Notes: generated by a model not told the origin, from the sequence alone. A stretch of DNA of 63,994 nucleotides, filler included, from Folioceros fuciformis (GCA_049999805.1; 4 parts of 3 records of this genome joined end to end with filler, not necessarily neighbours in it), one strand, 5' to 3'. Positions 1 through 63,430 are shown, numbered from the whole stretch's first letter. Program-made: numbers and translations.

Positions 1-112
1 ACACGCGGGGGCGTCGGGTCCGTCTTCTTGTACCGCACTCGACCTTCAGACGGACTCTTCGCATACTCTGTTCGTGCCAGTGTGAAGGTTTGGTGGTGGT
101 GGTGCCCCAAGC

Positions 113-1855
113 ATGGCTGCTGTCGCGGCGCTGGGAGCGCAGTACGCCGGATGCTGCAGTACAGCAGCTGCGCCTCCACCGCAGCTGCACCTCCGGAGCG
201 CGCACCTGCAATCCGTTGCCCCGGCATCGTCCAAGCTCAGCGCCTGGCCGCAGCTGAAGTCGGGGCTGCTGGCAGCAGCCAGCCCGCTTCTGACGAGGAG
301 GCATGCTGGAGCTGGAACCCTAGGTCTCGATGAGGGCAGCATTAGCGGGAGCGGGAGCAGGAAGCGGAAGTTCGTGTCGGTGAGGGCCTCGTCGTCCTCT
401 GCCGCCGTGCCGGTTCCAGCTCCTAAGGCCTCCGAGCCATGGCAGGGGGCGGCGCTCAAGCCGCTGGCTGCGTCCATCATCACCGGCGTGCTGCTGTGGA
501 TCATCCCGCCTCCGGCCGGGGTGGCCAAGAACGCTTGGCAGTTGCTGGCCATCTTCCTGGCCACCATCGTGGGAATCATCACGCAGCCGCTGCCTCTGGG
601 GGCGGTAGCGCTCATGGGCCTGGGGGCCACCGTGCTCACTAAGACGCTCACATTCGGAGCCGCCTTCAGCGCCTTCGGAGATCCTATCCCCTGGCTCATC
701 GCTCTCGCTTTCTTCTTCGCGCGTGGCTTCATCAAGACGGGGTTGGGGAACCGGGTGGCGTACCAGTTTGTGTCGCTCTTCGGGAAGACCAGCTTGGGTT
801 TGGGGTACAGCCTGGTGTTCAGCGAGGCGCTGCTGGCGCCCGCCATCCCCTCCGTGTCTGCTAGGGCTGGCGGGATCTTCCTCCCGCTCGTCAAGTCGCT
901 CTGCATTGCATGCGGGAGCAAGGTGGGAGATGGCACGGAGAGGAAGCTCGGGGCTTGGCTCATGCTCACGTGCTTCCAGACTTCTGTTATATCGTCCGCT
1001 ATGTTCCTCACGGGTATGGCTGCCAATCCCCTCACTGTCAATTTGACGGAGTCAGCCATCGGGCAGACTATCGGGTGGACCGACTGGGCAGTGGCTGCCG
1101 TTGTACCGGGAGTGGTGTCTCTGCTTCTGGTGCCTCTGCTGCTGTATATCCTCTACCCTCCCACTATCAAGAGCAGTCCTGATGCACCCAGGCTTGCTCG
1201 GGAGAATCTGGCTAAGATGGGTCCCATGTCCAAGAACGAGATTATTATGGCGGGAACATTGTTGGGCACAGTAGGCCTGTGGGTGTTTGGAGGAGTGATC
1301 GGCGTGGATGCTGTCACGGCTGCTATATTGGGGCTGTCTGTGTTGCTTTCAACAGGTGTTGTCACATGGAAGGAGTGTCTCGGGGAGTCTGTAGCCTGGG
1401 ATACCCTCACCTGGTTCGCTGCTCTCATTGCCATGGCTGGTTATCTCAACAAGTACGGCCTCATCTCCTGGTTTTCCCAGTCCGTGGTAAAGATTGTTGG
1501 TGGCTTGGGCTTGCAATGGCAGGCTTCGTTCGGCATCCTCGTCCTGCTCTACTTCTACTCCCACTACTTCTTTGCCAGCGGGGCTGCTCACATTGGAGCC
1601 ATGTTCACGGCCTTTCTGTCTGTGGCCACGGCCCTCGGGACGCCTCCTCTCTTTGCGGCTTTGGTTTTGGCCTTCCTGTCCAACATTATGGGTGGGCTCA
1701 CACACTACGGTATCGGCTCTGCACCTGTCTTCTACGGAGCTAACTATGTTCCCCTCTCTACTTGGTGGGGTTACGGCTTCGTCATTAGCGTCTTCAACAT
1801 CATCGTTTGGCTTGGAGTTGGAGGGATCTGGTGGAAGATGTTGGGGTTGTGGTGA
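113..1855 (+). CDS. DiT1: Plastid 2-oxoglutarate/malate translocator (dicarboxylate transporter 1, DASS family), intronless
   Basis: 580-aa ORF with an Ala/Ser-rich transit-peptide-like N-terminus, then WQGAALKPL..., PSVSARAGGIFLP, AWDTLTWF, HYFFASGAAHIGAMF and THYGIGSAPVFYG motifs typical of DiT1. Confidence 0.95.
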   Translation: MAAVAALGAQYAGCCSTAAAPPPQLHLRSAHLQSVAPASSKLSAWPQLKSGLLAAASPLLTRRHAGAGTLGLDEGSISGSGSRKRKFVSVRASSSSAAVPVPAPKASEPWQGAALKPLAASIITGVLLWIIPPPAGVAKNAWQLLAIFLATIVGIITQPLPLGAVALMGLGATVLTKTLTFGAAFSAFGDPIPWLIALAFFFARGFIKTGLGNRVAYQFVSLFGKTSLGLGYSLVFSEALLAPAIPSVSARAGGIFLPLVKSLCIACGSKVGDGTERKLGAWLMLTCFQTSVISSAMFLTGMAANPLTVNLTESAIGQTIGWTDWAVAAVVPGVVSLLLVPLLLYILYPPTIKSSPDAPRLARENLAKMGPMSKNEIIMAGTLLGTVGLWVFGGVIGVDAVTAAILGLSVLLSTGVVTWKECLGESVAWDTLTWFAALIAMAGYLNKYGLISWFSQSVVKIVGGLGLQWQASFGILVLLYFYSHYFFASGAAHIGAMFTAFLSVATALGTPPLFAALVLAFLSNIMGGLTHYGIGSAPVFYGANYVPLSTWWGYGFVISVFNIIVWLGVGGIWWKMLGLW

Positions 1856-7083: not shown

Positions 7084-7333
7084 TCAGCGGCCCTCGGCGC
7101 TGAATTGGGGCAGTATCGTGCAGTCCGGGCCAGTCCGCACGCCGTGAAACATAGTCAGTTAAACCTGTACATACCTGGCAAAGATGTTTGTGGGGGGCCC
7201 CACTGCTTAGAGCAAGGTCGGACGTCGGTCGGCCTGGCTGTGTTAGCTGGCTCCGGAGAGTCGCGATTCTGTAGGCCTGGCCGCTTGGCGCGCGCTTCCC
7301 CGCCAGCCTGCCTCCCTCGGTCTGTGCCCTGCT

Positions 7334-8809
7334 ATGGTCTCCTCGGCCGAACTGCATTGCGCAATGCGGGTGGTACAAGATGCAGGGGACTGTCCCCTGG
7401 AGCAGGGAGCTGGGCTTGAGGTGGAGAAGGAGCAGCAGAAGCATGAGCAGCTGCAGCTGCAGCAGCAGCAGCTGAGGAGCATCACCAGCGCGGAACTCGC
7501 CGAGCATTCCACCTCGCAGGATTTGTGGGTTTCGATACAGGGTAAGGTGTACGACGTGACGGAGTGGGTGGCGAAGCACCCCGGCGGCGACTACCCTCTG
7601 CTCACGTTGGCAGGCCAGGATGTGACCGACGCATTCCTGGCTTTCCATCCCGGGACGGCTTGGAGCTACTTGCCTCAGTTTCTGGTGGGCACGCTGGTGG
7701 ATTACCGGGTGTCTCCGATCGCAGCCGAGCATCGGATGCTGGTAGGAAAGCTGAAGAGCTCCCCGCTTTTCAAAAATCCGTTACACGTCTACCGTCGGTA
7801 TGCGGCGGTCATGCTCTGCATGTTTGTGTTGGGGGTGCTGGGAGTAGTGTATTCCACCAGTGTGTGGGTGCACCTGGGCAGTGCAGTTTTGCTCGGCCTG
7901 GTGTGGCATCAGAGTGGGTTTATAGGGCATGATGCTGGGCATTGTGGAATGGTGGGGCACCCTGTGGTGGACAAGGCTGTGGGGCTTCTTGTGGGGAACA
8001 TCTTGACAGGGATCAGTATGGCATGGTGGACGCGCAACCATAATGCGCACCACTTCGCGTGCAACAGCATCGAGTATGATCCGGATTTGCAGTACATGCC
8101 CATCTTCACCCTCACTCCCAAGCTCTTCAACTCCCTCTTCTCCTACTTCTATGACAGAAGGATGATGTTTGACGGTGCCACTCGCTTGCTTGTTCGGTAC
8201 CAGCATTGGGCATTTTACCCTGTCATGGCGGTGGCACGTGTCAACCTGCACGCACAGACCTTCTTGCTCCTCCTGTCCAAGAGAAGGATCCCCAACAGGC
8301 TGCTGGAGCTTGTTTGCGTGGGGATCTTCTGGCTCTGGTTTCTCTCCCTTCTGTGCTGCCTGCCGTCCAGGGCTGAGCGCCTTGCTTTCGTTCTGGTCAG
8401 CTATGCTACCACAGGCCTTCAACACGTGCAGTTCTGTGTCAACCACTTTTCGTGCCCAATCTACCAGGCCCGTCCTGACAGCGCAACTTGGTTTGAAGCT
8501 CAGGTCAAAGGTACCCTGAACCTCATCACTCCTCCGTGGATGGACTGGTTCTATGGTGGCTTGCAGTTCCAGATAGAGCATCACCTATTCCCGAAGTTCC
8601 CTCGTCACAATCTTCGCCAGATCCACGGCATTATTAAGCCCCTTTGCGACAAGTATGGGTTGCCCTACAAGTCTGTGACATGGTGGGAGGCAAACAAGAT
8701 GATCATTAGGACTTTAAAGGCTGCAGCTATTGAGGCATCGGATCTTCAGAAGCCGTCTCCAGCTCTGTCCAAAACCCCTTTGTGGGAAGCACTCAATGCA
8801 CATGGTTAA
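7334..8809 (+). CDS. SLD: Cytochrome b5-fused front-end desaturase, delta-8 sphingolipid desaturase type, intronless
   Basis: HPGG cytb5 motif, His boxes HDAGH, HNAHH and QIEHH, and a C-terminal LWEALNAHG typical of plant SLD. Confidence 0.88.
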   Translation: MVSSAELHCAMRVVQDAGDCPLEQGAGLEVEKEQQKHEQLQLQQQQLRSITSAELAEHSTSQDLWVSIQGKVYDVTEWVAKHPGGDYPLLTLAGQDVTDAFLAFHPGTAWSYLPQFLVGTLVDYRVSPIAAEHRMLVGKLKSSPLFKNPLHVYRRYAAVMLCMFVLGVLGVVYSTSVWVHLGSAVLLGLVWHQSGFIGHDAGHCGMVGHPVVDKAVGLLVGNILTGISMAWWTRNHNAHHFACNSIEYDPDLQYMPIFTLTPKLFNSLFSYFYDRRMMFDGATRLLVRYQHWAFYPVMAVARVNLHAQTFLLLLSKRRIPNRLLELVCVGIFWLWFLSLLCCLPSRAERLAFVLVSYATTGLQHVQFCVNHFSCPIYQARPDSATWFEAQVKGTLNLITPPWMDWFYGGLQFQIEHHLFPKFPRHNLRQIHGIIKPLCDKYGLPYKSVTWWEANKMIIRTLKAAAIEASDLQKPSPALSKTPLWEALNAHG

Positions 8810-19799: not shown

Positions 19800-19965
19800 G
19801 GGCCGGGTCGGGTTGGGTTGGGTCGGGTCGGGTCNNNNNNNNNNNNNNNNNNNNNNNNNNNNNNNNNNNNNNNNNNNNNNNNNNNNNNNNNNNNNNNNNN
19901 NNNNNNNNNNNNNNNNNNNNNNNNNNNNNNNNNNTCGGGTCAGGTCAGGTCAGGTCAGGTCAGGT
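19800..19965. repeat. GGGTC/GGTCA pentamer microsatellites flanking a 100-N gap
   Basis: Visible pentamer runs on both sides of the gap. Confidence 0.85.
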
Positions 19966-31318: not shown

Positions 31319-31418
31319 NNNNNNNNNNNNNNNNNNNNNNNNNNNNNNNNNNNNNNNNNNNNTTAATTAATTAANNNNNNNNNNNNNNNNNNNNNNNNNN
31401 NNNNNNNNNNNNNNNNNN
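31319..31418. other. Artificial contig-join spacer (N-TTAATTAATTAA-N)
   Basis: Six-frame-stop 12-mer at 31363-31374 embedded in Ns. Confidence 0.9.
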
Positions 31419-31949: not shown

Positions 31950-33865
31950 GAAGTTACAAAATTCGACCAGGAGGCAGGTAATGAAAGCATTAAATAGAGT
32001 GCTAACATATCTTCCTTAATGGCTTCCTATGTTGTTCCTTCCAACTTAGAAACAAGATGTCTGAAAGTAGCATTGTGCTTTTCTACTGAGTCATCATCTT
32101 GCATCTTGCAGAGTTAAAGGTTTTTAAGGGCTGCCATTTGACTGGTTGAATTTCCACCAGAGTAAAGCTCACAAAGTCTAGACCAGATATTTAATGCAGA
32201 TACGGCTCCTGAAGTGTGCCTCAACATTTTAGAGGTTAGGCCACATCGTACCATGTACATGGCTGCGTCATTTCTAACTGTCCATGCCTTGACAGTTGCT
32301 GCATCATCTGTATCTAACTCATCATCTCTGGTTGTTACATCCCAGAGTCCTTTGTTCTAAAGAGCACCCTGCATCCTCATCACCCAGATATCGTAATTCT
32401 CCCCTCTGAACTTGTCCTTTTCCTTAAACATGTCACTGCCTATGCTATAGGACAGTTTGGGTATGGTATCTTTATCACCCATGTTTGTAGGATTTAACAG
32501 ACACTAATGTGTGAAGTTGTAACCTGTGCTATGCAGGTTAATCACAACAAAGTGTCTAGGAACAGATGTTAGGAGATGAATGATACATGGTTCATGAAGA
32601 CATGAGCAATCACATAACATAAGCAGGGTTAGAAACTCTGTGCTGCGCTACTGTCAATTTGTTTTCTAATTTTAAATGCCTCATCTTCCACTTATTGTAT
32701 GCGTAGGTGGAGCATAATGGGCAACAATTGGGTGCATCAAATCTGTGACTTTTTTTTGTCTTATCTGTATGCCTACGTACAACTCCAGAATGAGGGGATT
32801 TAGCAAGCAAATGTGGTTTCGACAAAGTCAACAGTTTGAAATTCAAGTGAGAGATTTGTTCTTTTATACCTTGAATACCCACAGTAGAATCAATAAGGCG
32901 TCGAGTGACGCTGCTATGATTTCTTTCTATGCGGTTTTGGTATGATTCAAGCCTATGTGGTTTGATGTAGCATATGTTGTGAGAAGTCCCCTATGGTTAG
33001 GGTTACTAATAGAAGCTCGCTGCAATCGCACCGCTTGTGGAATCAACTGTATGGGAGAATAAGGAGCAAAAGTCAAATGTCTCTGACCAGGGTAGAGAGT
33101 CTCCAATATTGTATAGAAGGCCTCCTGTAGGTTTTTGCAGAGATCAAGCAAATCTTGGTTGCGCAACATCCACGTCACGGTGTGCTGATGGATGCGCTCC
33201 ATAAGATTATGCCTGTTTTGATTTCGATTTTGCTACCTCCTGTTGTTGTTTGCACACTCAACGAGAACGTGCCAGACATTGTTTCCACGGTAGCCATTTG
33301 TGGCTGAATTTGTAGAAGCTTGTAAAATGCACATTATATGAATTTCTGTAAGCTATTTTCAATAAATTTCAATATGCAAGATCTAGCAGTTGTTCTAGTG
33401 TACCTCTGCCAAAATTGCCTAAGGCAATCTGACTAGAGATGCACTGGAACAAGATCCGGGTTTAGCACATCTCCTTATAAAATATAAAGAAAATTTCTAC
33501 AAGAATTTTAATATGTTCTTTTCTTTTCTAAAAAAGAAACCTAATTTCCTTTTGAAAGAAAGCAAAAGAGACATGATTGTGCATGAAATTAAATGCACAA
33601 TCTAATGTACACTCATTTTAATGTAACCTACATTGCTCTGATACCATAAGAAATTACATGTAGATGTAGATTTATTATAAGAATAACATTGTATATATTC
33701 AAGAAGAGAGTAAGTAAAATATTGAAACTAAACTCAACTTAACTATTCATGAATGGGTGTGACTATTCATAACAGTCGTAACCCTAGTGAAGAGGTAAGA
33801 CATTTTAAACTATACACACACTATGAAACTTGAGATAATATAACCCTAATCTCACTATGCCAACA
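31950..33865 (-). mobile_element. Decayed Ty1/copia LTR retrotransposon remnant
   Basis: tRNA-iMet PBS TGGTATCAGAGC at 33646-33635. Copia gag MGDKD...KFRGENYDIWVMRMQGAL*NKGLWDV from 32482 with an internal stop. LWVFKV* RT-like fragment near 32870. Possible LTR at 33647-33865 starting TGTTGG. Confidence 0.7.
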
Positions 33866-38864: not shown

Positions 38865-40889
38865 TTAGTCGCAGGCAGACAGTGGGTTAGTTGCTTGGAT
38901 TAGCCAAGCCAAATCGTCGCCTGAGAGGTGGGGAGACAGGGCCTTGCGACAGTCGAAGTGATACTTGTCAATCCAGCCGATCTCTTCTGGAGTGAGCAGG
39001 GAAACATCCATCAACTTCTGTTGGTAGGGTACCCATGTAATATGCTCAAATTCCAGGTAGCCTTTCTCCCCGAAGTTGTGTTTCACCTCTGCTTCTTTTA
39101 TGATCAAAACATTCTCTATCCTTATCCCGAAGTTGCCATCCTCGTAATAGCCAGGCTCGTCGGTGACTGTCATGTTGGCTTGCAACGAAACGTTCCGGGC
39201 CTGCGGCCTGAAGCTGATCAGGTGGGGTCCCTCGTGCACATTGAGGTAAGAACCCACACCATGCCCTGTGCCATGGCGGTAGTCGAGCCCATCCTTCCAG
39301 AGAGGGAGTCTTGCGAGGATATCTAAGGCATGACCAGTGGTGCCATTGGGGAAGACAGCCGTGTCCAAGCCTATGTGTGCCTTGAGGACCCGTGTGTAGC
39401 AAGCCTTCTCATGGGCCGACGGCTTCCCGAAATGCATGGTGCGCGTGATGTCGGTGGTGCCATCCAGGTACTGCCCACCCGAGTCGCACAGATACATAGA
39501 GTCAGGCTGCATCTCCGCGCAAGAGTCCGGCACAGCAGAATAGTGGATTACAGCCGCATTGGCCCCCACGGCGGAAATGGTGTCGAAGCTGAGGCCCTTG
39601 AAAAGCTCCCGCTTGGAGCGAAATTCCTCCAACTTGTCGCTCACACTAATCTCGGTCATCTTCTCCTTATCCGAGCGCTTGCGCTTCAGAGAGCCCTTGC
39701 CATCGTTGCCCTCGGAGAAGTAGCCCGCTGCCCCATACACCTCCTGCATCTGCCGGTCCAGCCACGCGGTGTGACACACGACGGCTGCCCCGTCCCGGAT
39801 GTGTGAATTACGCATGCCCTGCAGCTCCACGGGATGCTTTAGCGCCTTGGCCAGGGCCAAAGGGGACTGCTGCAGCAGCACCCTGTCCTGCGGCAACCTG
39901 GTGTAGAGCGCGTAGCTGCAAGAGGCAGGGTCAAGCCACACCAACTTGGGAGCATCGCTTGAGCCGTGGTCGTCCTCCTCCTCCACCTCTTCCTCCGATC
40001 CTTCCGCGGAGGGCTCGGGCTCAGGATCGGCAGCTGCAGCGCAGACCCTGCCCAGCTCCTCCACATCCGGCAGCATCCGGTCGTAGTCCCGGATCTCCAC
40101 TCCGTTCTCCCGCAAGTAATGCTCCACCACCTCGTCGATCTTGCGCCGGTCCACGTAGTAAAAGGCAGAATGCGCGGTGACGATAGCGAAGGCGTGCACC
40201 ACGGGGTTGTAGAGCACGTCAGAGCCCCGCAGATTATAGAGCCAGGCCACCTCGTCCAGTGTGGTGACGAGGATGGCGTACGCCCTCTCCTTGGCCAGAG
40301 CCTGGCGCAGGTCGTGCAGCTTGTCCCTGGCGAGCCTGCCGGCGAAAGCCACGGCGTGTGTATGGACGGGAGCCAGCGCGGGCCTCGGCCGCGTCTTCCA
40401 CACCTGATCCACAAGATTATGCTGCAGAGGCACCAGCTTTAGGCCGCTCCGCGCGAAGGCGTGCTCCCAGCGCTTGGCGGAATCCACCGAAACGCACCAG
40501 GGGTCCACCCCGACGGCGGCCCCGCGCGACAGGTGATCCGCCAGCCAAGTCTCCAGCGGTGGCTCCTCCCCGCCTCGCATCAACTGCCATGCGCTGCTCA
40601 GCTGCTGCTGTGCTTGCAGGAAGTAGCGGCCATCGGTCCACAGCAGCGCCTTGCTACCCGTGATCACGGCCACACCAGCGCTGCCGCTGAAGCCGCTCAC
40701 GTACTCCCGCCGCTTGTCTGAGTCCGCCACGTACTCGCTTTGGTGCGCGTCCTCCGACGGCACCACCAGCGCCTCCAGCGCCGGTGTGTGGGCCTGCATC
40801 AGCGGCCGCAGCAGCCCCACTGCCTCTACCTCTACCTCTCCGTTTCCCTCTGCCTCGTCCCGCTCTTCCTTCCCCTCCGACTCCTCCAT
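38865..40889 (-). CDS. APP1: Aminopeptidase P1 (Xaa-Pro aminopeptidase, M24B), intronless
   Basis: VPSEDAHQSEY, LWTDGRYFLQA, DSGGQYLDGTTDITRT, HGTGHGVGSYLNVHEGP and EPGYYEDGNFGIRIEN. First ATG is at 40889; the ORF track uses an upstream GTG. Confidence 0.94.
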   Translation of the reverse strand: MEESEGKEERDEAEGNGEVEVEAVGLLRPLMQAHTPALEALVVPSEDAHQSEYVADSDKRREYVSGFSGSAGVAVITGSKALLWTDGRYFLQAQQQLSSAWQLMRGGEEPPLETWLADHLSRGAAVGVDPWCVSVDSAKRWEHAFARSGLKLVPLQHNLVDQVWKTRPRPALAPVHTHAVAFAGRLARDKLHDLRQALAKERAYAILVTTLDEVAWLYNLRGSDVLYNPVVHAFAIVTAHSAFYYVDRRKIDEVVEHYLRENGVEIRDYDRMLPDVEELGRVCAAAADPEPEPSAEGSEEEVEEEDDHGSSDAPKLVWLDPASCSYALYTRLPQDRVLLQQSPLALAKALKHPVELQGMRNSHIRDGAAVVCHTAWLDRQMQEVYGAAGYFSEGNDGKGSLKRKRSDKEKMTEISVSDKLEEFRSKRELFKGLSFDTISAVGANAAVIHYSAVPDSCAEMQPDSMYLCDSGGQYLDGTTDITRTMHFGKPSAHEKACYTRVLKAHIGLDTAVFPNGTTGHALDILARLPLWKDGLDYRHGTGHGVGSYLNVHEGPHLISFRPQARNVSLQANMTVTDEPGYYEDGNFGIRIENVLIIKEAEVKHNFGEKGYLEFEHITWVPYQQKLMDVSLLTPEEIGWIDKYHFDCRKALSPHLSGDDLAWLIQATNPLSACD

Positions 40890-41266
40890 GATGCGCAGCC
40901 GCTGCGCCAACTCTGCTTCCACCTCCTCCGCCACTTTGCCAGGCCTCGCACTTCAAACGAAAAAGGCAATTCTTGCCACAACCTCCTAGCACCCGAGCGA
41001 TAGACGAGGCCGAGGGCTCGCAGCGCCGCAACTCTCCACAAGAGGGCCCATCCAAGGCTAGACTACGTCTACAGACAGGAATATACGTCTAGGAAAAAGA
41101 GGGTAGATAGGTCCTCAAATTTTTAGTAAAAAGTTCCGTGGAGATAAACAGGTACGTTTTCCACAGCCAGTGAACGAATCCGCGTCATGAGCAAGCATTC
41201 AAGGACACTACTACCCATGAACCCATACCGATGACCTGAATACATAGACTATACGTTCCGTGAAAA

Positions 41267-54412: not shown

Positions 54413-54512
54413 NNNNNNNNNNNNNNNNNNNNNNNNNNNNNNNNNNNNNNNNNNNNTTAATTAATTAANNNNNNNNNNNNNNNNNNNNNNNNNNNNNNNN
54501 NNNNNNNNNNNN
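54413..54512. other. Artificial contig-join spacer
   Basis: TTAATTAATTAA at 54457-54468 within Ns. Confidence 0.9.
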
Positions 54513-57265
54513 GTGATTCGTGCGAGCTCAGCAGCCAACGAAACGCCTTCACCGTTGCCTCTGCCTGCTGTCGAAAATGTCTTGCATTCCCATCCCGCGA
54601 TCAGCATATCCACTGGGCTTGACAAGGCTTGTAGCTGCCGCTTCCCAACCAGGTTCACGTCTGTGGGCAGCCTGCTCTGACAGCCTCGAACTGCTTCCTC
54701 GCTCAGTAGTGTTGGATACTGTTTGCAGAACCTGAGGATTCGACCCCTAGCAACAACTCGAATCTTCTCATCCTTCTCCACGCAGGTATATTGCCGTATC
54801 TTGACGCCACACTGCAACACCGCTTCCAGGCCACTGTTGATTCCCGAGCAGAGCTCCAACAAATGGATGCCTTGAGCGCCCACCTTCCATCGTACTAGAG
54901 CATCGTCGATGCGTCGATCTCCCGACTTGGCAGGCCCCATACCTGGGATCGACCTCTCAGGACATGTGTCTGTGAGATTCCACGGTCGATCCTCCTTCCT
55001 TCGCTGGTTCTCTCGAACCCTCGCTTGATCCAAATATTCTGAGCGCACCACCTTAAGCACACCCTTCTGCTCTCTTGGCTTTGGCATCTCCAGAGAGGAT
55101 AACTCCTGCGTTTCCTCCCACATCTCATGTCGATGTTCACTCTGAGCACTGTGGGCAATCATGGTGCTGCCTGTCATCCTCGTCCTGCTCTTGCCACCAC
55201 TCCTATTCATCCTTAGAGGAATTCGTGCAACATGCGTGAAATCTCCTCTCCACCAGAATGGTCTGTAGAAAGCTTCAGCGTGCAAGGGATCAACCCCCAT
55301 GGCAGGACGGTGAGTTCCGTCCGACCCCAGCAAGACATCATATGTCTTCGCACTGGTGACCAAACATCTCACTTCAACGATGCTGGCATCCTTCGTGCCA
55401 GGCTTCAATTCAATCTTCACGGGCCTCCTCGTCATTCCCAGTACCTGTTCCTTGGTACCTGCAGAGGTGGTGATGTTCACGTCGCTCGGAACGAGCTTGT
55501 GTCCGTACAGGTTTAGTGCCTCCTGCACCCGTGCTCCCAGCAGTACCGGATCCGCTCCTGTGTCTACAAGTACGTTTACTGGAGCATAGCCATCAAAGGT
55601 CACGTGCCGTCCCGTGTTATCAATCATGGCAACACCTCCTCCACCTCGCGCCTCTGGCATCAGATGCTCGCCACACAAACTGGCCATACTAGGGAGAGAT
55701 CCTGCGGATTCAAGCTCCTTTCTCAGCCATTCTCGCATGATGTTTTTGAAGTTGTTGCCTTTCACTCCCAGATCCACAAGACTTACTGCAGGCACCTCCA
55801 TGGCCTTGTCCAGCAACGCCTCAACGTCTCTACCTGATCTTGACACCTTCTGTGTCGTGGAGTTTCCCTCGACCTGCCGGAAACTCTCCGGCATCTTGGT
55901 CGATTCCCGTTCCGGCACTCCCTTCGCAGTGACGCCTTCACCAAAGTTAGCAACAGCCTTTTTCTTTTTCTTGCGCACCGCCATCATGCCAAATGCCTCA
56001 TCATCATCAGAGTCAGAGAACAAAATCCTCTGCTCTATTCTGCTGGCCATGTTGGCCATCTCCTTCTTGAGCTCCTCCACTTGCCCAAGGAGAGCCTTAC
56101 GACTCGGGCCCTTGCCCTTCTCGTTCTCAGCTGATGCAAGCTTGGGCTTCAGCTCTGGATAAGCTTCCCAACACGCTGCCTCCATGTGACCCCATCTGCC
56201 ACAAGACTTACAGGCTTCCTTGCCCTTCGGACCACCTGGCTTGTAGTCGCATTCGAACGCCTTGTGCGCTCCACAGCATCTGCCACACTTCACAGCTGCT
56301 TGACCTGCATTGTTAGCTGGCCTCTCCTTCGGCGCATGTGGCTGCTTGCCATGTCCTGAGGATTGTGCTTGCTCCCGGTACTGGTACCTTGGAACAAACC
56401 TGGAATTCCCGTGTCCTCCAGACCCGTGCTGCGAGGAGCCCTTCACGACTCCGTGATTTTCCAAGTAAGCCTGGCTTACTGCATCTCCTTTGAGCACCTT
56501 CTCAGCAATTTGGTAGGCGTCTATCAACTGATACCTTTCTCCCATCGCTCCATGCAGCGAGTCCATTACCTTCCTTCTTTGTCTGGCAGGCAATGCTGCC
56601 ATGAAGATCTCGGCAGCCTCCCTCATCGTCTTCACTCCCGTGTCTTCCACCAGAACCTTCAGTCTGAGGTAAGATGCACGCAATGTCTCGTTAGGCCTGA
56701 AAGAAAACCTCGACAGTTCCTGGATCTTTTCCAGCGAAGCTGTAGGAAACATGGTGGTTAACTTGGCGAACATCAAGTCCACCAGATGCTCGAGCTTGTC
56801 CTCGTCAGTAGGGGGTGCAGTCGAACCAGCCCTCTTGGCCGCCTCGTGCACTGCTTCTCTTCTCTCGGCCACCTTCAGGATCCCAGCCTTCTCATCTCTG
56901 TAATACATTAGAGCCTCACCCGCAAGGTAGGATGACATCTTCATGAACGCCATCCTCTGAGTGAACTCGTCCTTGTATTTCATCTTGTTTTCCGCCATTG
57001 CCCAACGAAACTTCTCCTCGAAATCTGCAAGAGACATGCTTCCATGTTTTCCTGTGAAGACATCGTTCTTACTTGGTGTGAACTCAAGCTCCATTCTTGC
57101 AGACTCTCTGCTCCAATCGCCAAACTGTCTCCTTGTGACTGGCGCGTTGTCTCTGTATTGTTCCGGTGTCCTCTTGAATGGCGAGTAGTAGCCGTCGTGC
57201 ACTTCTCCGACTGAAGACGGCGCAGGTGTCCTTTCGTCAGTCCACCCTGATCTCAAGAACACCAT
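54513..57265 (-). CDS. Retroelement polyprotein, N-terminal part: gag, two CCHC knuckles, aspartic protease, start of the DNMT domain (truncated by gap)
   Basis: YLAGEALMYY gag-like segment, CGRCCGAHKAFEC and CKSCGRWGHMEAAC, VLVDTGA...DVLLG, and LLELCSG...AGWEC. Confidence 0.88.
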
Positions 57266-57489
57266 CAATGGTTACTTCTCCTATGCCTGACCACTGCACG
57301 GATGTTGTCAAAGGGCAAATTGTTTCCACCGTTAGCCCAATCAGCTAGCCAGAAAAGTACATCCACTGCCTCTATCCACAAACGACTCCAGACGTATGCA
57401 GGCTCTTCTCCCGACAGCTCTGCTAACTCAGCAATCGTGAGACTACCACACCTAAGCCGTGTATAATCAATGGCAGAATTCTTGTCCAT
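57265..57489 (-). CDS. 74-aa upstream ORF whose stop overlaps the polyprotein start (TGATG)
   Basis: ATG at 57489 and TGA at 57267-57265 sharing its A with the ATG at 57265-57263. Confidence 0.5.
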   Translation of the reverse strand: MDKNSAIDYTRLRCGSLTIAELAELSGEEPAYVWSRLWIEAVDVLFWLADWANGGNNLPFDNIRAVVRHRRSNH

Positions 57490-57654
57490 CAGAAAAACAT
57501 CAGCCTATCTCTTAGTGCTGCCTCTGCAACACCCAACCTTCTTGGATCGCAGCTGTCTCTTGGGTTGGATGGTGGACGATTTCCGCCTCTTCATCCAATC
57601 TCCAGCGCGCCACATTCTCCTCCAGTACCGTATCTTAGTCCCCAACAAGCGGAT

Positions 57655-58496
57655 TGTTGATGTGGTGAAATCAAGCTGGAAAATTCTCCCAACCTGGCAA
57701 TGCAACGAACCACAAGAACCTCTAGGAGACAAAGACACAGCAGGGACGAAGTATGGCTGTCTATTGGAACAAGACAAACATCAACAATCCGAGAATCCAT
57801 GGCTGGGTGCCTACATATATAGGCAAAAACCCCCAGGAGTTCTCGATGAAGTGTCCACCCGTATCGATGGTGGGCACTTTATAATCCTACTTTCCTTGAT
57901 TTATGATTTTTATGTATTTTCTAATATCTTCTAATATAAATCTGCTATCTATATATGTGGCATAGCACCGCGCCTTTCATGCACAACCATGCATATAGGT
58001 TGCATGCGCCATGACACATCACCTGCCACATGTCCACATACATCACATGTCATCCTTCATCTCCATATGCATGCATACATGGCACACATGCATATATGGC
58101 ATACATGTCATGTGCAGGCCATCCATGGGCCATGTACATGACATCATCAAGCACTTCAGCATCAGGGCTTATGCCCGAGATGCTCCAGTCAGTATCTAGT
58201 CATTTCAGCATTCAGGGCTTATGCCCAGGATGCTCTAGTCAGTATCCAGTCATAGAGTCTTAGGTGCTCTGTTTCCCATACAGCAACAGCTGTCGCGCAG
58301 CAGCCGCATAGCTGCATGCCTACCTAGCCTGTCTACCAAGCTAGGTCACTAAGCTTCCGCCTGCCTACGATCTCCTTGGCCTTCGGCCTAGGAGCAACAA
58401 TCCTAGCCTTAATTTGTCCTTGGCCTATGGCCAAGAGCAAGGCTACAAAAAGAGACTAGGTTTGCCTAAGAGAGGCAGACCCGGGACCCGTCAACA
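57655..58496 (-). repeat. Long terminal repeat (about 840 bp) of the DNMT-carrying element
   Basis: Starts TGTTGA immediately after the purine-rich AGGGGGGC (PPT, 58504-58497). TATATAT at 57821. Ends at ...CCACA (57661) or ...TCAACA (57655). Confidence 0.75.
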
Positions 58497-58582
58497 GCCC
58501 CCCTGGGAAACTTGGAGGCCTAGCCACCTGGTTTCCCACAAAATTGTTTAGACCAACTTGGCCTAGGAAAACAAACAACTAC

Positions 58583-61500
58583 TTACCAACGTCCCCACCA
58601 GCGAGAACGTAGCTTGTCCAACACTGACGGTGGTTCTGACCGAGGAGGAGGAATGGCGTCATCTTCTAGATCCTCATCATCTGATGGGTCTTCTTGTGCC
58701 TCCTGTGTAATCGTAATCTCACTGGGCAGCTTGAATCCAGAGAGACTGTCAACTGCTGTTTCAGCTTCCAACGTGTGTGAATTTAAGACAACCTCAGTAT
58801 CACCTTCTGTAAGAGCCACGTTCACACTTAGCACATTACAGTGCTCACATAGCCATTCTTCTTCTGGAACACTGTCCAGTGCCGGTTTGAGGCAAAACAG
58901 ATGGTAACCACGGTTACACCTGTCACATAGCAACATGAATTCGTCGTCAGTTGTGTGTCCACACTCCTCACAGGGCAAATCTGCTGGTGGCGTCCAGGTC
59001 TGAGGCACAGTTCGTGTATCCAGATCAGGCAAATGGCATGGAGCCAAGTGCTTCATGTGTTCCTTGCACCTTCTGCCATCTCTTCCTTCAAGTTCAACCA
59101 CACCTTGCTCACCAACCTGGACAACTCGCAGGATAAGCCTTCCTGTGCTGACATCTAACGTGCTTGCAGGCCTGCGCTGCAAGTACACGTAATCTCCAGA
59201 TGCAAACTTGCGGCCTTTGGGCTTCCACGAGCCCTCCCGCGTATAAGCATACCTCAGCTGGTCCCGATGCTGGGCCACAGCCAAATTATCCATAGCCATG
59301 GGAAGAATTCTTTGAAATACTTCTGCTCTGGCTTGAACCTGTGCCAAGCACACATTTGCATCTTTGCTCCAGTCAACAGGGATGGAGTAGGTGTCCTTCA
59401 CCACATTCGGCAACACTGCGTTGCGTCCGAATAACAAAAAGTATGGACTGAAACTTCCAAGAGCTGCCATGCTGAATCTCTCCCGCAGCAGCTCGTCTTC
59501 CTCTGCCTTAGGAACCTCTTTATCCTGCAGTAGTTGGAGGAAAGGCCTTCGCTTCCCTTCGGCTTCTGCAAGTTGGAACGCCAAGCCTGTGCTTACCAGC
59601 CACCTTAGACTGTACAAGTCAAATGCCTGTCCGAGCATCCTGCACCTTGCAGATTCTGTGATGCCCATGGTCTGAGTGTCCTTCTTGGCAAAGCCCATCG
59701 CTTGCTCGCGTTCCTCAACATTGAGCTCTCCAAGCTCATTCCCTTTCAAATCCAGAATCACACCATCTCCTCCTGGTCTGAAGGCATAAGATTGCGGTGT
59801 GCTCACCAGAGTTGGCCATGCCCTTCTGGATTCCCCTACTCGATTCACAGGGTAAAATGGCAACTTGTCCATCCTCTTCACCTGTTGTGAGCACCTTCCC
59901 AACTCTAGGATATCATCCACAACCTTCCGCTTCGGAGTTGTCAAATTCCTGTGATGTCTGAGCACCTCCAGTCCAGCCACATTTGTCCAGTAACTGCGAA
60001 GCCTGTGTGCATATGAGCCACACTGCACCGCGTCCATGATCAGCTCATTGCCGAACCACGCCCGAATCTCTTCATACAGGGCCCTAACAGCTGGACGTTT
60101 GTCCATGGCTGCACACACATTCTCCAGAATGTACCAACATCGTGGATTCGCAATCTGGACTTCTCGCGTGATTCGTGCGAGCTCAGCAGCCAACGAAACG
60201 CCTTCACCGTTGCCTCTGCCTGCTGTCGAAAATGTCTTGCATTCCCATCCCGCGATCAGCATATCCACTGGGCTTGACAAGGCTTGTAGCTGCCGCTTCC
60301 CAACCAGGTTCACGTCTGTGGGCAGCCTGCTCTGACAGCCTCGAACTGCTTCCTCGCTCAGTAGTGTTGGATACTGTTTGCAGAACCTGAGGATTCGACC
60401 CCTAGCAACAACTCGAATCTTCTCATCCTTCTCCACGCAGGTATATTGCCGTATCTTGACGCCACACTGCAACACCGCTTCCAGGCCACTGTTGATTCCC
60501 GAGCAGAGCTCCAACAAATGGATGCCTTGAGCGCCCACCTTCCATCGTACTAGAGCATCGTCGATGCGTCGATCTCCCGACTTGGCAGGCCCCATACCTG
60601 GGATCGACCTCTCAGGACATGTGTCTGTGAGATTCCACGGTCGATCCTCCTTCCTTCGCTGGTTCTCTCGAACCCTCGCTTGATCCAAATATTCTGAGCG
60701 CACCACCTTAAGCACACCCTTCTGCTCTCTTGGCTTTGGCATCTCCAGAGAGGATAACTCCTGCGTTTCCTCCCACATCTCATGTCGATGTTCACTCTGA
60801 GCACTGTGGGCAATCATGGTGCTGCCTGTCATCCTCGTCCTGCTCTTGCCACCACTCCTATTCATCCTTAGAGGAATTCGTGCAACATGCGTGAAATCTC
60901 CTCTCCACCAGAATGGTCTGTAGAAAGCTTCAGCGTGCAAGGGATCAACCCCCATGGCAGGACGGTGAGTTCCGTCCGACCCCAGCAAGACATCATATGT
61001 CTTCGCACTGGTGACCAAACATCTCACTTCAACGATGCTGGCATCCTTCGTGCCAGGCTTCAATTCAATCTTCACGGGCCTCCTCGTCATTCCCAGTACC
61101 TGTTCCTTGGTACCTGCAGAGGTGGTGATGTTCACGTCGCTCGGAACGAGCTTGTGTCCGTACAGGTTTAGTGCCTCCTGCACCCGTGCTCCCAGCAGTA
61201 CCGGATCCGCTCCTGTGTCTACAAGTACGTTTACTGGAGCATAGCCATCAAAGGTCACGTGCCGTCCCGTGTTATCAATCATGGCAACACCTCCTCCACC
61301 TCGCGCCTCTGGCATCAGATGCTCGCCACACAAACTGGCCATACTAGGGAGAGATCCTGCGGATTCAAGCTCCTTTCTCAGCCATTCTCGCATGATGTTT
61401 TTGAAGTTGTTGCCTTTCACTCCCAGATCCACAAGACTTACTGCAGGCACCTCCATGGCCTTGTCCAGCAACGCCTCAACGTCTCTACCTGATCTTGACA

Positions 61501-61815
61501 CCTTCTGTGTCGTGGAGTTTCCCTCGACCTGCCGGAAACTCTCCGGCATCTTGGTCGATTCCCGTTCCGGCACTCCCTTCGCAGTGACGCCTTCACCAAA
61601 GTTAGCAACAGCCTTTTTCTTTTTCTTGCGCACCGCCATCATGCCAAATGCCTCATCATCATCAGAGTCAGAGAACAAAATCCTCTGCTCTATTCTGCTG
61701 GCCATGTTGGCCATCTCCTTCTTGAGCTCCTCCACTTGCCCAAGGAGAGCCTTACGACTCGGGCCCTTGCCCTTCTCGTTCTCAGCTGATGCAAGCTTGG
61801 GCTTCAGCTCTGGAT
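58583..61815 (-). CDS. Retroelement polyprotein, C-terminal part: protease, DNMT3-like C5 methyltransferase, integrase C-terminal remnant, PHD finger
   Basis: DTGA (61219), LELCSG, AGWECK, ILENV, AHRLRSYWTN, EREQAMGF and MLGQAFD. FSPYFLLFGR...AQHRDQ...FASGDYVYL. CEECG...LLCDRCNRGYHLFCL...WLCEHC. Confidence 0.92.
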
Positions 61816-61915
61816 NNNNNNNNNNNNNNNNNNNNNNNNNNNNNNNNNNNNNNNNNNNNTTAATTAATTAANNNNNNNNNNNNNNNNNNNNNNNNNNNNN
61901 NNNNNNNNNNNNNNN
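61816..61915. other. Artificial contig-join spacer
   Basis: TTAATTAATTAA at 61860-61871 within Ns. Confidence 0.9.
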
Positions 61916-63430
61916 AAGGTGGTTCCGCTCCTCCCTGGATCCGAGAAGGAAAGGGGAGAGCTCATGGAAGACCTCACTTCCATGGGCTGCGCGGATTTTC
62001 TCCTTAAACCCTGGGGGTTTAAGGAAGAATTAGTCGTTAGGGAGTTGGTCGGAGGCCGCTCCAACATATTCAACGGCTCAATCCGTGCCGACCCAGCGAG
62101 GTGGACGGATAAGCTCTGGAGGGAAGTCTATGGCTTCCGCTCCGGAGGGCTGGGAATGGCCAGCCGCAAGGATGACTGGATCCGCGGAAAGTTCCGCGGA
62201 CCAGTCAATCCGAAAGATGGTTACGCAATTGAGGATTGCGTGACCAACCGGAACCGTAGGTTGCTGGAGTTTTTACTCCCGATCCTACATCCGGAAAAGC
62301 CCACGAGGGTTACCATAACCCTCGCGAATACGATTTTCGGTGCCCAGAAAGGGGACCGGAAGGTAGACTGGGGCCGGATCATGCATGATCTGGTCTCCCA
62401 GTTAGTGGGCAGGGTCGGAAAGAGCAGGGCAACTCCTTTGAGCCCCTACCTCTTCCACCTCTACAAGCACGCAGAACTCCTGACCGGACCAGAGGAAAAG
62501 GTCTGGAAGCATCAGGAGATGCTGCTCAAGTACGGGGAGTCTACGTCTGATGACGAGACTCAACCCGAGTCCGGATCGGAACCGGACTCGGATGAGGATG
62601 ACTGTGCAGTCACCTCCCCGCCACCAAAGAAGCAAAAAGCGAAGTCTCCTCCACAGGACAAGGGCAAAGCAAAAGCCCAGGATCCGGAGACTTCGTCCCG
62701 GCCTATTCCCAAACCCGGAGCTCAGCCAAAGAGTTTCGTCGGTTTCGGGGATCCGATCACGCCATTGCTGGATGCAGTGACAAACCTCCGATTAGACTTG
62801 GAAAGTAAGAACCTAGTCTTAATCGAGGTAGCCAATGTGATCGGAGTGAGGCCGGACCGGAACTTAGCTGCCAAAGTAGCGGAGTGCATCGCGGATCCGA
62901 GTGAAGCTGAACGGCATCAGGCGGAACTCCACGCGCTACGAGGGGAGCTGGAGAAGACCAAGGCCGATCTTCTCCGAGCAAGGGAGGACACTGTCGCGAT
63001 CCGGATGATCGCCCGGGACGTTTCCATGGTAGCCACCCAGGTTAAGGAAACTCTCGGTGCACCGGGAGCGGCAGTGGCCAAGGCCGAATTGTACAATACG
63101 AAGGCCCTGGAGGATCGGAAACTTTCCGGCTCCAGGATGCTGGCGATCCTCTCCGACTACTCGGAGCGAATAGAGGGCGCCATGCAAAAAGGGCGGGAGG
63201 CTGCGGACCGGATCGTCAACAGCATGGAGCGCATAGTGCGGGCAAGGGAGTCCCAAGAGCCTCATCTGTCGGATGTCTCCCTTCCTACCCTTTTCCTGGA
63301 CGAAACCGGAACCGGAGGATTTATGTTCTCCACTCCGGAGTCCAAGAAGGCGGCCGAAGTCCCCGCATCCGGAAGCAGGAGTCCAAAGAAGAAGACTCCA
63401 CCCAGCCGGACAGCGAGGCGGTTAGATTAA
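61916..63430 (+). CDS. 5'-truncated protein of at least 503 aa, probably a retrotransposon accessory ORF (globular domain + acidic/basic linker + coiled coil)
   Basis: Intronless open frame. NPKDGYAIEDC...LHPEKPTRVT...VDWG domain, PPPKKQK NLS-like motif and a coiled-coil C-terminal half. TCCGG/CCGGA-rich flanks. Confidence 0.55.
   Translation, partial: KVVPLLPGSEKERGELMEDLTSMGCADFLLKPWGFKEELVVRELVGGRSNIFNGSIRADPARWTDKLWREVYGFRSGGLGMASRKDDWIRGKFRGPVNPKDGYAIEDCVTNRNRRLLEFLLPILHPEKPTRVTITLANTIFGAQKGDRKVDWGRIMHDLVSQLVGRVGKSRATPLSPYLFHLYKHAELLTGPEEKVWKHQEMLLKYGESTSDDETQPESGSEPDSDEDDCAVTSPPPKKQKAKSPPQDKGKAKAQDPETSSRPIPKPGAQPKSFVGFGDPITPLLDAVTNLRLDLESKNLVLIEVANVIGVRPDRNLAAKVAECIADPSEAERHQAELHALRGELEKTKADLLRAREDTVAIRMIARDVSMVATQVKETLGAPGAAVAKAELYNTKALEDRKLSGSRMLAILSDYSERIEGAMQKGREAADRIVNSMERIVRARESQEPHLSDVSLPTLFLDETGTGGFMFSTPESKKAAEVPASGSRSPKKKTPPSRTARRLD

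Follow-up and report, generated by a model that had tools for sequence, protein, structure and literature searches.

We find that a retroelement polyprotein encoded in a 63,994-nucleotide stretch of DNA from Folioceros fuciformis (GCA_049999805.1; the whole stretch is hereafter the window) holds a DNMT3-like cytosine-5 DNA methyltransferase (MTase) behind its Gag region and aspartic protease (PR). The contig that carries the element is likely to represent, in collapsed and cyclic form, a Ty3/gypsy-type copy with an internal deletion; full-length kin of this copy encode Gag, PR, MTase, reverse transcriptase (RT), RNase H (RH), integrase (INT) and a PHD finger in one frame. Through a deletion between two occurrences of the same 7-nt word, RT, RNase H and both the zinc-binding and the catalytic parts of the integrase would have been lost. 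The frame would have been kept by chance, and the remainder would read Gag-PR-MTase-(integrase C-terminus)-PHD, 1388 amino acids (aa) from the likely initiator Met. Having lost RT, RH and the integrase core, the copy in the window would be unable to copy or insert itself.

At least four separate contigs make up the window, strung together by artificial spacers (N44-TTAATTAATTAA-N44, at 31319-31418, 54413-54512 and 61816-61915), so that features on either side of a spacer are unlinked. When the two ends of the element-bearing contig are compared, 54513-56160 equals 60168-61815 with 100% identity over 1648 bp. What the original prediction took for two partial copies is thus a single sequence seen twice, independent copies being excluded, and the assembly of the contig is cyclic or collapsed, its unit being 5655 bp long; no further copy of the element is found within the window. 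Read round the cycle, the frame has 1447 codons, 1388 of them from the Met at 57094, a start chosen by alignment with the start of the related protein P0003. The proposed length of about 1445 aa for the joined protein therefore holds as arithmetic, but the protein is not a complete retroelement polyprotein, since Pfam finds no RT, RNase H, H2C2 zinc-binding domain or rve integrase core in the window protein.

The Gag region, the two zinc knuckles, the DTG protease and the MTase do share one frame, read on the minus strand (Table 1), as had been proposed. Pfam gives no gag match in the window protein. The Gag region matches the N-terminus of P0003 at 27% over 389 aa (E 1.5e-25), and the clusters nearest to it in the language-model Atlas carry zf-CCHC, Retrotrans_gag or Ty3_capsid (0.92-0.94), a lead only. 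The integrase C-terminal region (INTC) aligns with the region behind rve in P0004, P0008, P0012 and others (34-39%, E 1e-32 to 1e-43). The best solved match of the PHD finger is the ATXR5 PHD domain (5vab_A, E 7.1e-14). This C-terminal finger is the sole reader, as Pfam detects neither PWWP nor ADD, the N-terminal readers of animal DNMT3. Logan contigs of four public runs were aligned to 54700-60300; three of the runs, X1, X3 and X5, stem from three studies and bear one organism label. One of these contigs (X3 record 9) spans 54700-55384 unbroken and so confirms the link between protease and MTase, which is also conserved in the relatives.

The MTase motifs I, II, IV, VI, VIII, IX and X all stand in canonical order at the places where they had been predicted. 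Fourteen proteins match residues 400-745 (E 3e-50 to 1e-20, 32-39% identity), and HMMER retrieves 932 representative clusters at E<=1e-3, 141 of them at E<=1e-30, with top identities of 40-47%. The closest protein found is 47% identical, the figure among near full-domain matches being 40%. The fourteen proteins, the 932 clusters and the profile match to DNMT3A given below argue that the motifs are not due to chance. The domain's neighbours in the Atlas are PF00145 clusters (0.96). All 22 matches in a single-sequence phmmer search against the PDB are DNMT3A/B/C or DRM. A profile of seven MTase sequences (A1), for which solved structures were the only named references, matches DNMT3A at 3.7e-20, DNMT3C at 6.8e-19 and DNMT3B at 2.6e-18, as against 1.7e-11 for tobacco DRM, 8e-9 for DRM2, 2.6e-7 for M.HhaI, 3e-4 for DNMT2 and 0.81 for DNMT1. 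Positions 59-250 and 315-376 of A1 are colinear with residues 13-185 and 225-286 of DNMT3A (2qrv_A), that is, from motif I through motif X without permutation. Likewise, an AlphaFold2 model of the domain (mean pLDDT 68.6, pTM 0.75) retrieves DNMT3A/B/C throughout the 35 Foldseek matches listed (ranks 1-50, E about 1e-12 to 3e-10), with target-normalised template-modelling scores of 0.69-0.77 for catalytic-domain chains and 0.38-0.50 for longer chains. Profile, phmmer and Foldseek thus agree with the predicted DNMT3-like, unpermuted C5-MTase, an assignment that sequence and modelled structure support as judged against solved structures only.

Motif IV of the window protein reads Gly-Trp-Glu-Cys-Lys: the Cys is kept and Glu occupies the usual Pro position, the Pro-Cys dipeptide being absent. 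Among 161 relatives, Glu-Cys occurs in 81, Pro-Cys in 44 and another form in 11, and the motif was not found in 25. The Glu-Cys and Pro-Cys forms are both present in long intact polyproteins (P0003-P0356). Lys follows the Cys in the window alone, the residue being Gln in 122 of the 136 relatives in which motif IV was found.

In the relatives the MTase is joined to the domains that the window copy lacks. P0361 (2327 aa) reads CCHC-PR-MTase-RT-RH-H2C2-rve, in P0019 gag-PR-MTase runs into the start of RT, and a protein of Closterium sp. NIES-68 (GJP34393.1) reads CCHC-PR-MTase; the named relatives, Hariotina and Closterium, are algal. Of 80 metagenome loci (L001-L080) retrieved by the MTase profile, 62 have PR immediately before the MTase or RT immediately after it, 14 have the order RT-RH-MTase-INT, three could not be assigned and one has MTase-INTC-PHD. 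The complete series PR-MTase-RT-RH-INT-INTC-PHD is found in 20 of the 80, eight of which also have a gag match. Dozens of seemingly intact gag-PR-MTase-RT-RH-INT-PHD elements are seen on metagenome contigs, for example L010 (5861-14791) and L040 (4626-14791). Among 166 related proteins, 16 show the order PR-MTase or MTase-RT and 96 the order RT/RH-MTase or MTase-INT. A FastTree phylogeny of 152 MTase domains (each covering 250 aa or more of the domain, 16 shorter rows having been dropped) places all 93 RT-RH-MTase-INT rows in one clade of 124 rows with support 99, and all 16 PR-MTase-RT rows, together with the window, within the other 28.

The order PR-MTase-INTC-PHD itself occurs in none of the 166 proteins and none of the 80 loci. 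In L067 (480-2217) the MTase directly precedes the integrase C-terminus and PHD, but in a different frame; here another lineage lost the integrase core independently and with the frame broken. No near-identical protein fragment reaching past the junction was found, a 'shorter' search giving three matches at 40-41% identity; among viral contigs, 19 pattern matches yielded no relative. Two separate in-frame deletions had been considered, and were dropped for a single one once the relatives showed PR-MTase-RT.

The runs bear directly on the junction. Contigs of X1, X3 and X5 coming from both sides depart from the window at 59462 and 59468, with identical continuations; one of them (X3 record 15) carries 777 more letters beyond the departure point. 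Behind the MTase the continuation reads ...FSMAA and then VDTELSTKSV, which matches the 'F-x-F/S-...-L-G' lead-in to RT of P0019 and P0361, and before the integrase C-terminus it reads IVLGYRVSV, a match to where the integrase core ends in P0027, P0040 and P0361. Both loose ends are in frame, and the window unites the two sides through a common 7-nt word with the frame kept. Given the RT lead-in and the end of the integrase core on the departing contigs, the abundant form in these runs would appear to lead from the MTase into RT. A further microhomology deletion, of 182 nt with 7 shared letters, is found in X3 at 58585/58768; with it the polyprotein loses its acidic tail at the C-terminus as well as its stop codon.

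The element belongs to a diverged multi-copy family: 181 X1 contigs could be aligned, 76 at 99% identity or above, 45 at 95-99% and 60 at 90-95%. An 8-nt insertion behind 58285 is common to X3 and X4. At 20 sites at least two runs agree against the window, and 14 of these are C-to-T type changes in the window (4 in CG, 8 in CHG and 2 in CHH context), a small sample that suggests deamination of a host-methylated copy. We regard the copy in the window as decaying and probably methylated by its host.

The non-coding segment is present in one copy only, and repeat boundaries can therefore not be set. Its summed X1 depth is 620-2550 as compared with 360-600 over the open reading frame (ORF), an uncalibrated ratio of 1.3 to 5 times that gives no copy number, and contig break points cluster at 58232-58291, with loose ends at 58232, 58248 and 58291. 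No tRNA-iMet primer-binding site was found in the element contig, and the rest of the window has 4 matches where 5.4 are expected. An exact 12-nt match to the tRNA-iMet primer-site motif lies at 33635-33646 (minus strand) in the neighbouring contig and may mark another long terminal repeat (LTR) element. Direct repeats of 297-341 bp with 86-91% identity flank 4 of the 15 relative loci examined. In three of these four (L040, L051 and L069) a stretch of 110-150 nt that precedes the 3' repeat is found again immediately behind it; in L010 this holds for only 25 nt. Either an A-coding-B-A-B or an LTR layout would yield a cyclic assembly graph.

As to the host, the best 120 matches listed for the aminopeptidase P encoded in the window are from land plants wherever an organism is named (60-68% identity). 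In an alignment this protein is 63-69% identical to those of mosses, liverworts, lycophytes, ferns, gymnosperms and angiosperms alike, about the distance among these groups themselves. By this sequence the host is a streptophyte placed close to the base of the land plants or right at it, possibly a land plant, and of a lineage that has no close annotated proteome among those searched. The land-plant lineage of the original prediction is thus upheld as far as streptophyte; the narrower assignment is not, one host gene being equally distant from all groups with no closer match. The three long ORFs of the other contigs (SLC13 transporter, desaturase and aminopeptidase P) are intronless, which is unusual for a streptophyte with intron-rich land plants as its nearest matches; an intron-poor host or retrocopies may explain this. 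A diatom or other intron-poor protist, considered as host for these intronless ORFs, was ruled out by the land-plant matches of the aminopeptidase.

Several points weigh against an internally deleted copy of a DNMT3-bearing element. None of the X1, X3 and X5 contigs listed bridges 59462-59468, so that the deleted form is unconfirmed outside this assembly. A terminal-repeat pair cannot be demonstrated in the window, in which a single non-coding copy is present. Besides the 182-nt deletion, X3 contigs have a 2-nt insertion in gag, which indicates that copies are decaying, and the 27 coding differences listed divide into 16 nonsynonymous and 11 synonymous ones, in so small a sample weak evidence of constraint. 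The expected Pfam profiles were recovered for the protease and the PHD finger, but the DNA_methylase profile (PF00145) scores the MTase at 19.5 bits (E 7.3e-4), under the curated cut-off of 22; relatives 32-39% identical exceed it (P0004 43 bits, P0007 45.7, P0361 48.2). Glu in place of Pro and Lys after the Cys make the activity of the enzyme uncertain. P0005, which by eye reads PR...MTase and then the start of RT and which the script left unlabelled, falls in the RT-RH-MTase-INT clade, so domain order and clade are imperfectly tied. Finally, the element contig has no host gene, and its link to the host therefore rests on the run labels.

Could the junction be an artefact, only full-length elements existing and the assembler or chimeric reads having made both the join of MTase to integrase C-terminus and the cyclic overlap? 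The listed X1, X3 and X5 contigs that reach 59462/59468 do all diverge, at an X1 depth of 358-425 like that of the rest of the element, and the contig is visibly collapsed already through its 1648-bp identical overlap. However, the join shares only 7 nt, on which no overlap or k-mer assembler would join without supporting reads, so some reads probably carry the junction. Contigs drop rare variants, and the form may therefore exist without a bridging contig. We therefore hold an artefact to be unlikely and, because 7 nt would not suffice for the assembler and X3 has a comparable 7-nt microhomology deletion, take the form in the window to be probably a real deletion derivative. It is very unlikely that the element contig belongs to a contaminating or associated organism such as a green alga rather than to the streptophyte of the other contigs. 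Its want of a host gene, the chaining of separate contigs in the window and the algal names of the relatives would suit such an origin, but the element is found in runs of the same organism label from four studies (shares 0.85, 0.63, 0.20 and 0.05), its X1 depth is high and even, its G+C and CpG values are near those of the host contigs, and Closterium is itself a streptophyte. In detail, G+C is 0.52 and CpG observed/expected 0.59 in the element contig, as compared with 0.49-0.52 and 0.68-0.69 in the other contigs of the window, a gap in CpG depletion too small for interpretation.

The intact frame invites another reading, in which an RT-less element is maintained by selection, as a non-autonomous hitch-hiker or as a domesticated host silencing gene. 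The frame is open over 1447 codons across the deletion, and its part from gag to MTase is homologous to P0003 and P0019 over more than 700 aa. Yet a deletion retains the frame by chance once in three, the listed sites that separate the window copy from the shared sequence of the runs number just about 20 over 5.6 kb, so that the copy is too young for an intact frame to signal selection, no relative has the same domain order (that of L067 being out of frame), and the junction form is not the abundant one in the runs; we give this reading scarcely any weight. A catalytically dead or repurposed MTase, a pseudo-enzyme that binds DNA or chromatin in a structural or targeting role, is possible but doubtful, and would be compatible with the deleted copy that we favour. 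The missing Pro and the unique Lys of motif IV and the sub-threshold PF00145 score speak for it. Against it, the catalytic Cys is in place, as are Glu in motif VI (ENV), R-x-R in motif VIII and the motif I glycines, all of them aligned with DNMT3A; R-x-R-x-[YFLW]-W-x-N occurs in 143 of the 161 relatives, and Klebsormidium elements are described as having conserved key residues and a Ka/Ks below 0.2 (PMC5890265). The most far-reaching combination would make the element the first embryophyte Gypsy-DNMT3 family and one tip of a very large, hardly described green-lineage family (at least 932 clusters at 50% identity), with an active Glu-Cys enzyme of DNMT3 type, two positions in pol, an ATXR5-like PHD on the integrase and the RT-less form as a propagating non-autonomous partner; we consider it improbable.

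If the window copy is such a deletion derivative, it could move only with the enzymes of full-length relatives, and would itself supply at most the PHD tail along with Gag, PR and MTase. The protease of full-length elements would free the MTase from the polyprotein, and the freed MTase may methylate new cDNA or the insertion site, an idea that derives from PMC5890265. It is conceivable that the PHD finger, which is most like that of ATXR5, a reader of the H3 tail, directs the integrase and its insertions to a particular chromatin state, as chromodomains do in chromoviruses.

The precedent of retrotransposon-borne DNMTs that had been invoked is correct. Among known elements, KnitGypsy-Dnmt3 of Klebsormidium nitens (de Mendoza et al. 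2018, PMC5890265) comes closest. By its description there, it likewise has a Dnmt3-related, unrearranged MTase inside an LTR Gypsy-type polyprotein in a streptophyte host. KnitGypsy-Dnmt3 elements are described as intronless and multi-copy, and their repeat layout as DIRS-like, A-coding-B-A-B (Fig. 4 legend), a layout shared by three of the four relative loci with flanking repeats. The window copy differs in lacking RT, RH and the integrase core, a distinction made from the published description only, and its host is probably not Klebsormidium, since host-gene matches do not exceed 69%, on the assumption that the Klebsormidium proteome was among those searched; no Klebsormidium sequence was identified among the matches. 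The main text of the 2018 paper does not give the domain order and contains the term PHD 0 times. Cellular DNMT3A/3B/3C (2qrv, 6u8p, 8tci) share the motif I-X order, R-x-R-x-F/Y-W-x-N and a small target-recognition region with the window MTase, which has no PWWP/ADD, carries Glu-Cys, sits in a retroelement polyprotein and is about 18-21% identical to them.

Other mobile elements combine some of these features. SymbioDIRS-Dnmt3 and SymbioLINE-Dnmt of Symbiodinium are, as described in PMC5890265, also retrotransposon-borne DNMTs, the former Dnmt3-type and in one ORF with RT, but they belong to DIRS (tyrosine recombinase) and LINE elements in another kingdom-level host lineage. The EpiLTRs of Cymbomonas and Euglena (bioRxiv 10.64898/2026.05.21.726589) are, as described in that preprint, Ty3/gypsy-like with a cytosine MTase and a chromatin reader; theirs is a DNMT4-sister enzyme at the 3' end of pol, with an adenine MTase and a chromodomain, whereas the window has a DNMT3-type enzyme after PR, and a PHD. 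The same preprint counts 'streptophytes (Gypsy-DNMT3)' among the known cases. In chromoviruses, as presented in PMC3350952, a histone reader is likewise fused to the integrase C-terminus, presumably for chromatin-directed insertion, though it is a chromodomain there (type I in Chlamyvir elements) and an ATXR5-like PHD finger here. Literature searches for DNMT3-gypsy elements with a PHD, or for any in zygnematophytes, hornworts or land plants at large, led to PMC5890265 and the 2026 preprint only. In the literature searched we found no account of such elements in these plants, nor of the PHD finger, of two domain orders or of Glu-Cys in motif IV, although the figures and supplements of the 2018 paper may bear on the order. 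What is added to a known kind of element is an MTase between PR and RT, Glu-Cys in most relatives, an ATXR5-like PHD after the integrase, and 932 clusters.

Retrotransposons that bear the very enzyme by which they are usually silenced represent a striking epigenetic conflict between parasite and host, and the published hosts are few: Symbiodinium, Klebsormidium and, lately, Cymbomonas and Euglena. The 932 clusters, Closterium, Hariotina and dozens of metagenome copies suggest that the DNMT3-gypsy lineage is far wider in the green lineage than the one published alga. The two domain orders, the Glu for Pro and the pairing with PHD offer testable material, are the enzymes active and what do they methylate? 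The copy in the window is itself ordinary, a truncated and decaying member of its family.

Table 1. Features of the element-bearing contig and genes on other contigs of the window
Feature	Position	Strand	Description
Element-bearing contig	54513..61815	n/a	7303 bp, flanked by spacers 54413-54512 and 61816-61915
Open frame P0001	61813..58586	-	1076 codons: PR, entire MTase, integrase C-terminal region, PHD, stop
Open frame P0002	57271..54515	-	Gag-like region, two zinc knuckles, PR, first third of MTase
Gag region	56147..57094	-	Probable Met through two knuckles
Zinc knuckle 1	56249-56287	-	Spacing C-X2-C-X3-H-X4-C
Zinc knuckle 2	56171-56212	-	Canonical CCHC
Aspartic protease	60974..61258	-	LVDTGAD at 61205-61225; Pfam Asp_protease_2, E 2.9e-6, 28.3 bits, cut-off 24.3
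Protease, second showing of the same sequence	55319-55603	-	Contig-end overlap
C5-MTase domain	59576..60532	-	320 aa, motifs I-X in canonical order
MTase motif I	60485-60517	-	LLELCSGINSG
MTase motif II	60425-60439	-	CVEKD
MTase motif IV	60227-60253	-	AGWECKTFS
MTase motif VI	60116-60130	-	ILENV
MTase motif VIII	59981-60010	-	AHRLRSYWTN
MTase motif IX	59690-59713	-	EREQAMGF
MTase motif X	59618-59635	-	LGQAFD
Deletion or misjoin junction	59462..59468	-	7-nt overlap; post-MTase linker meets integrase C-terminal region
Integrase C-terminal region	58994..59461	-	Part after the DDE core in relatives
PHD finger	58838..58972	-	C-terminal end of polyprotein; Pfam PHD, E 1.3e-10
Stop codon	58583..58585	-	Ends the polyprotein frame
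Non-coding segment	57095..58582	-	1488 nt from stop to gag start; terminal-repeat material and leader
Tandem repeat, 50 bp	58155-58253		Within the non-coding segment
SLC13 transporter	86-1855	+	589 aa, uninterrupted ORF
Cytochrome-b5 front-end desaturase	7247-8809	+	520 aa, uninterrupted ORF
Aminopeptidase P	38865-40952	-	695 aa, uninterrupted ORF

On the remaining contigs, an Rfam scan of the whole window returned a single tRNA and nothing else. The contig next to the element has an open frame of 504 aa (61916-63430, plus strand) with an acidic, Lys-rich middle and a coiled-coil-like tail, for which Pfam gives no match at E<=0.01. Short tandem repeats of GGGTC/GGTCA type surround an assembly gap of 100 N at 19800-19960, and the GC skew is strongly negative, down to -0.33, at 20-24 kb.

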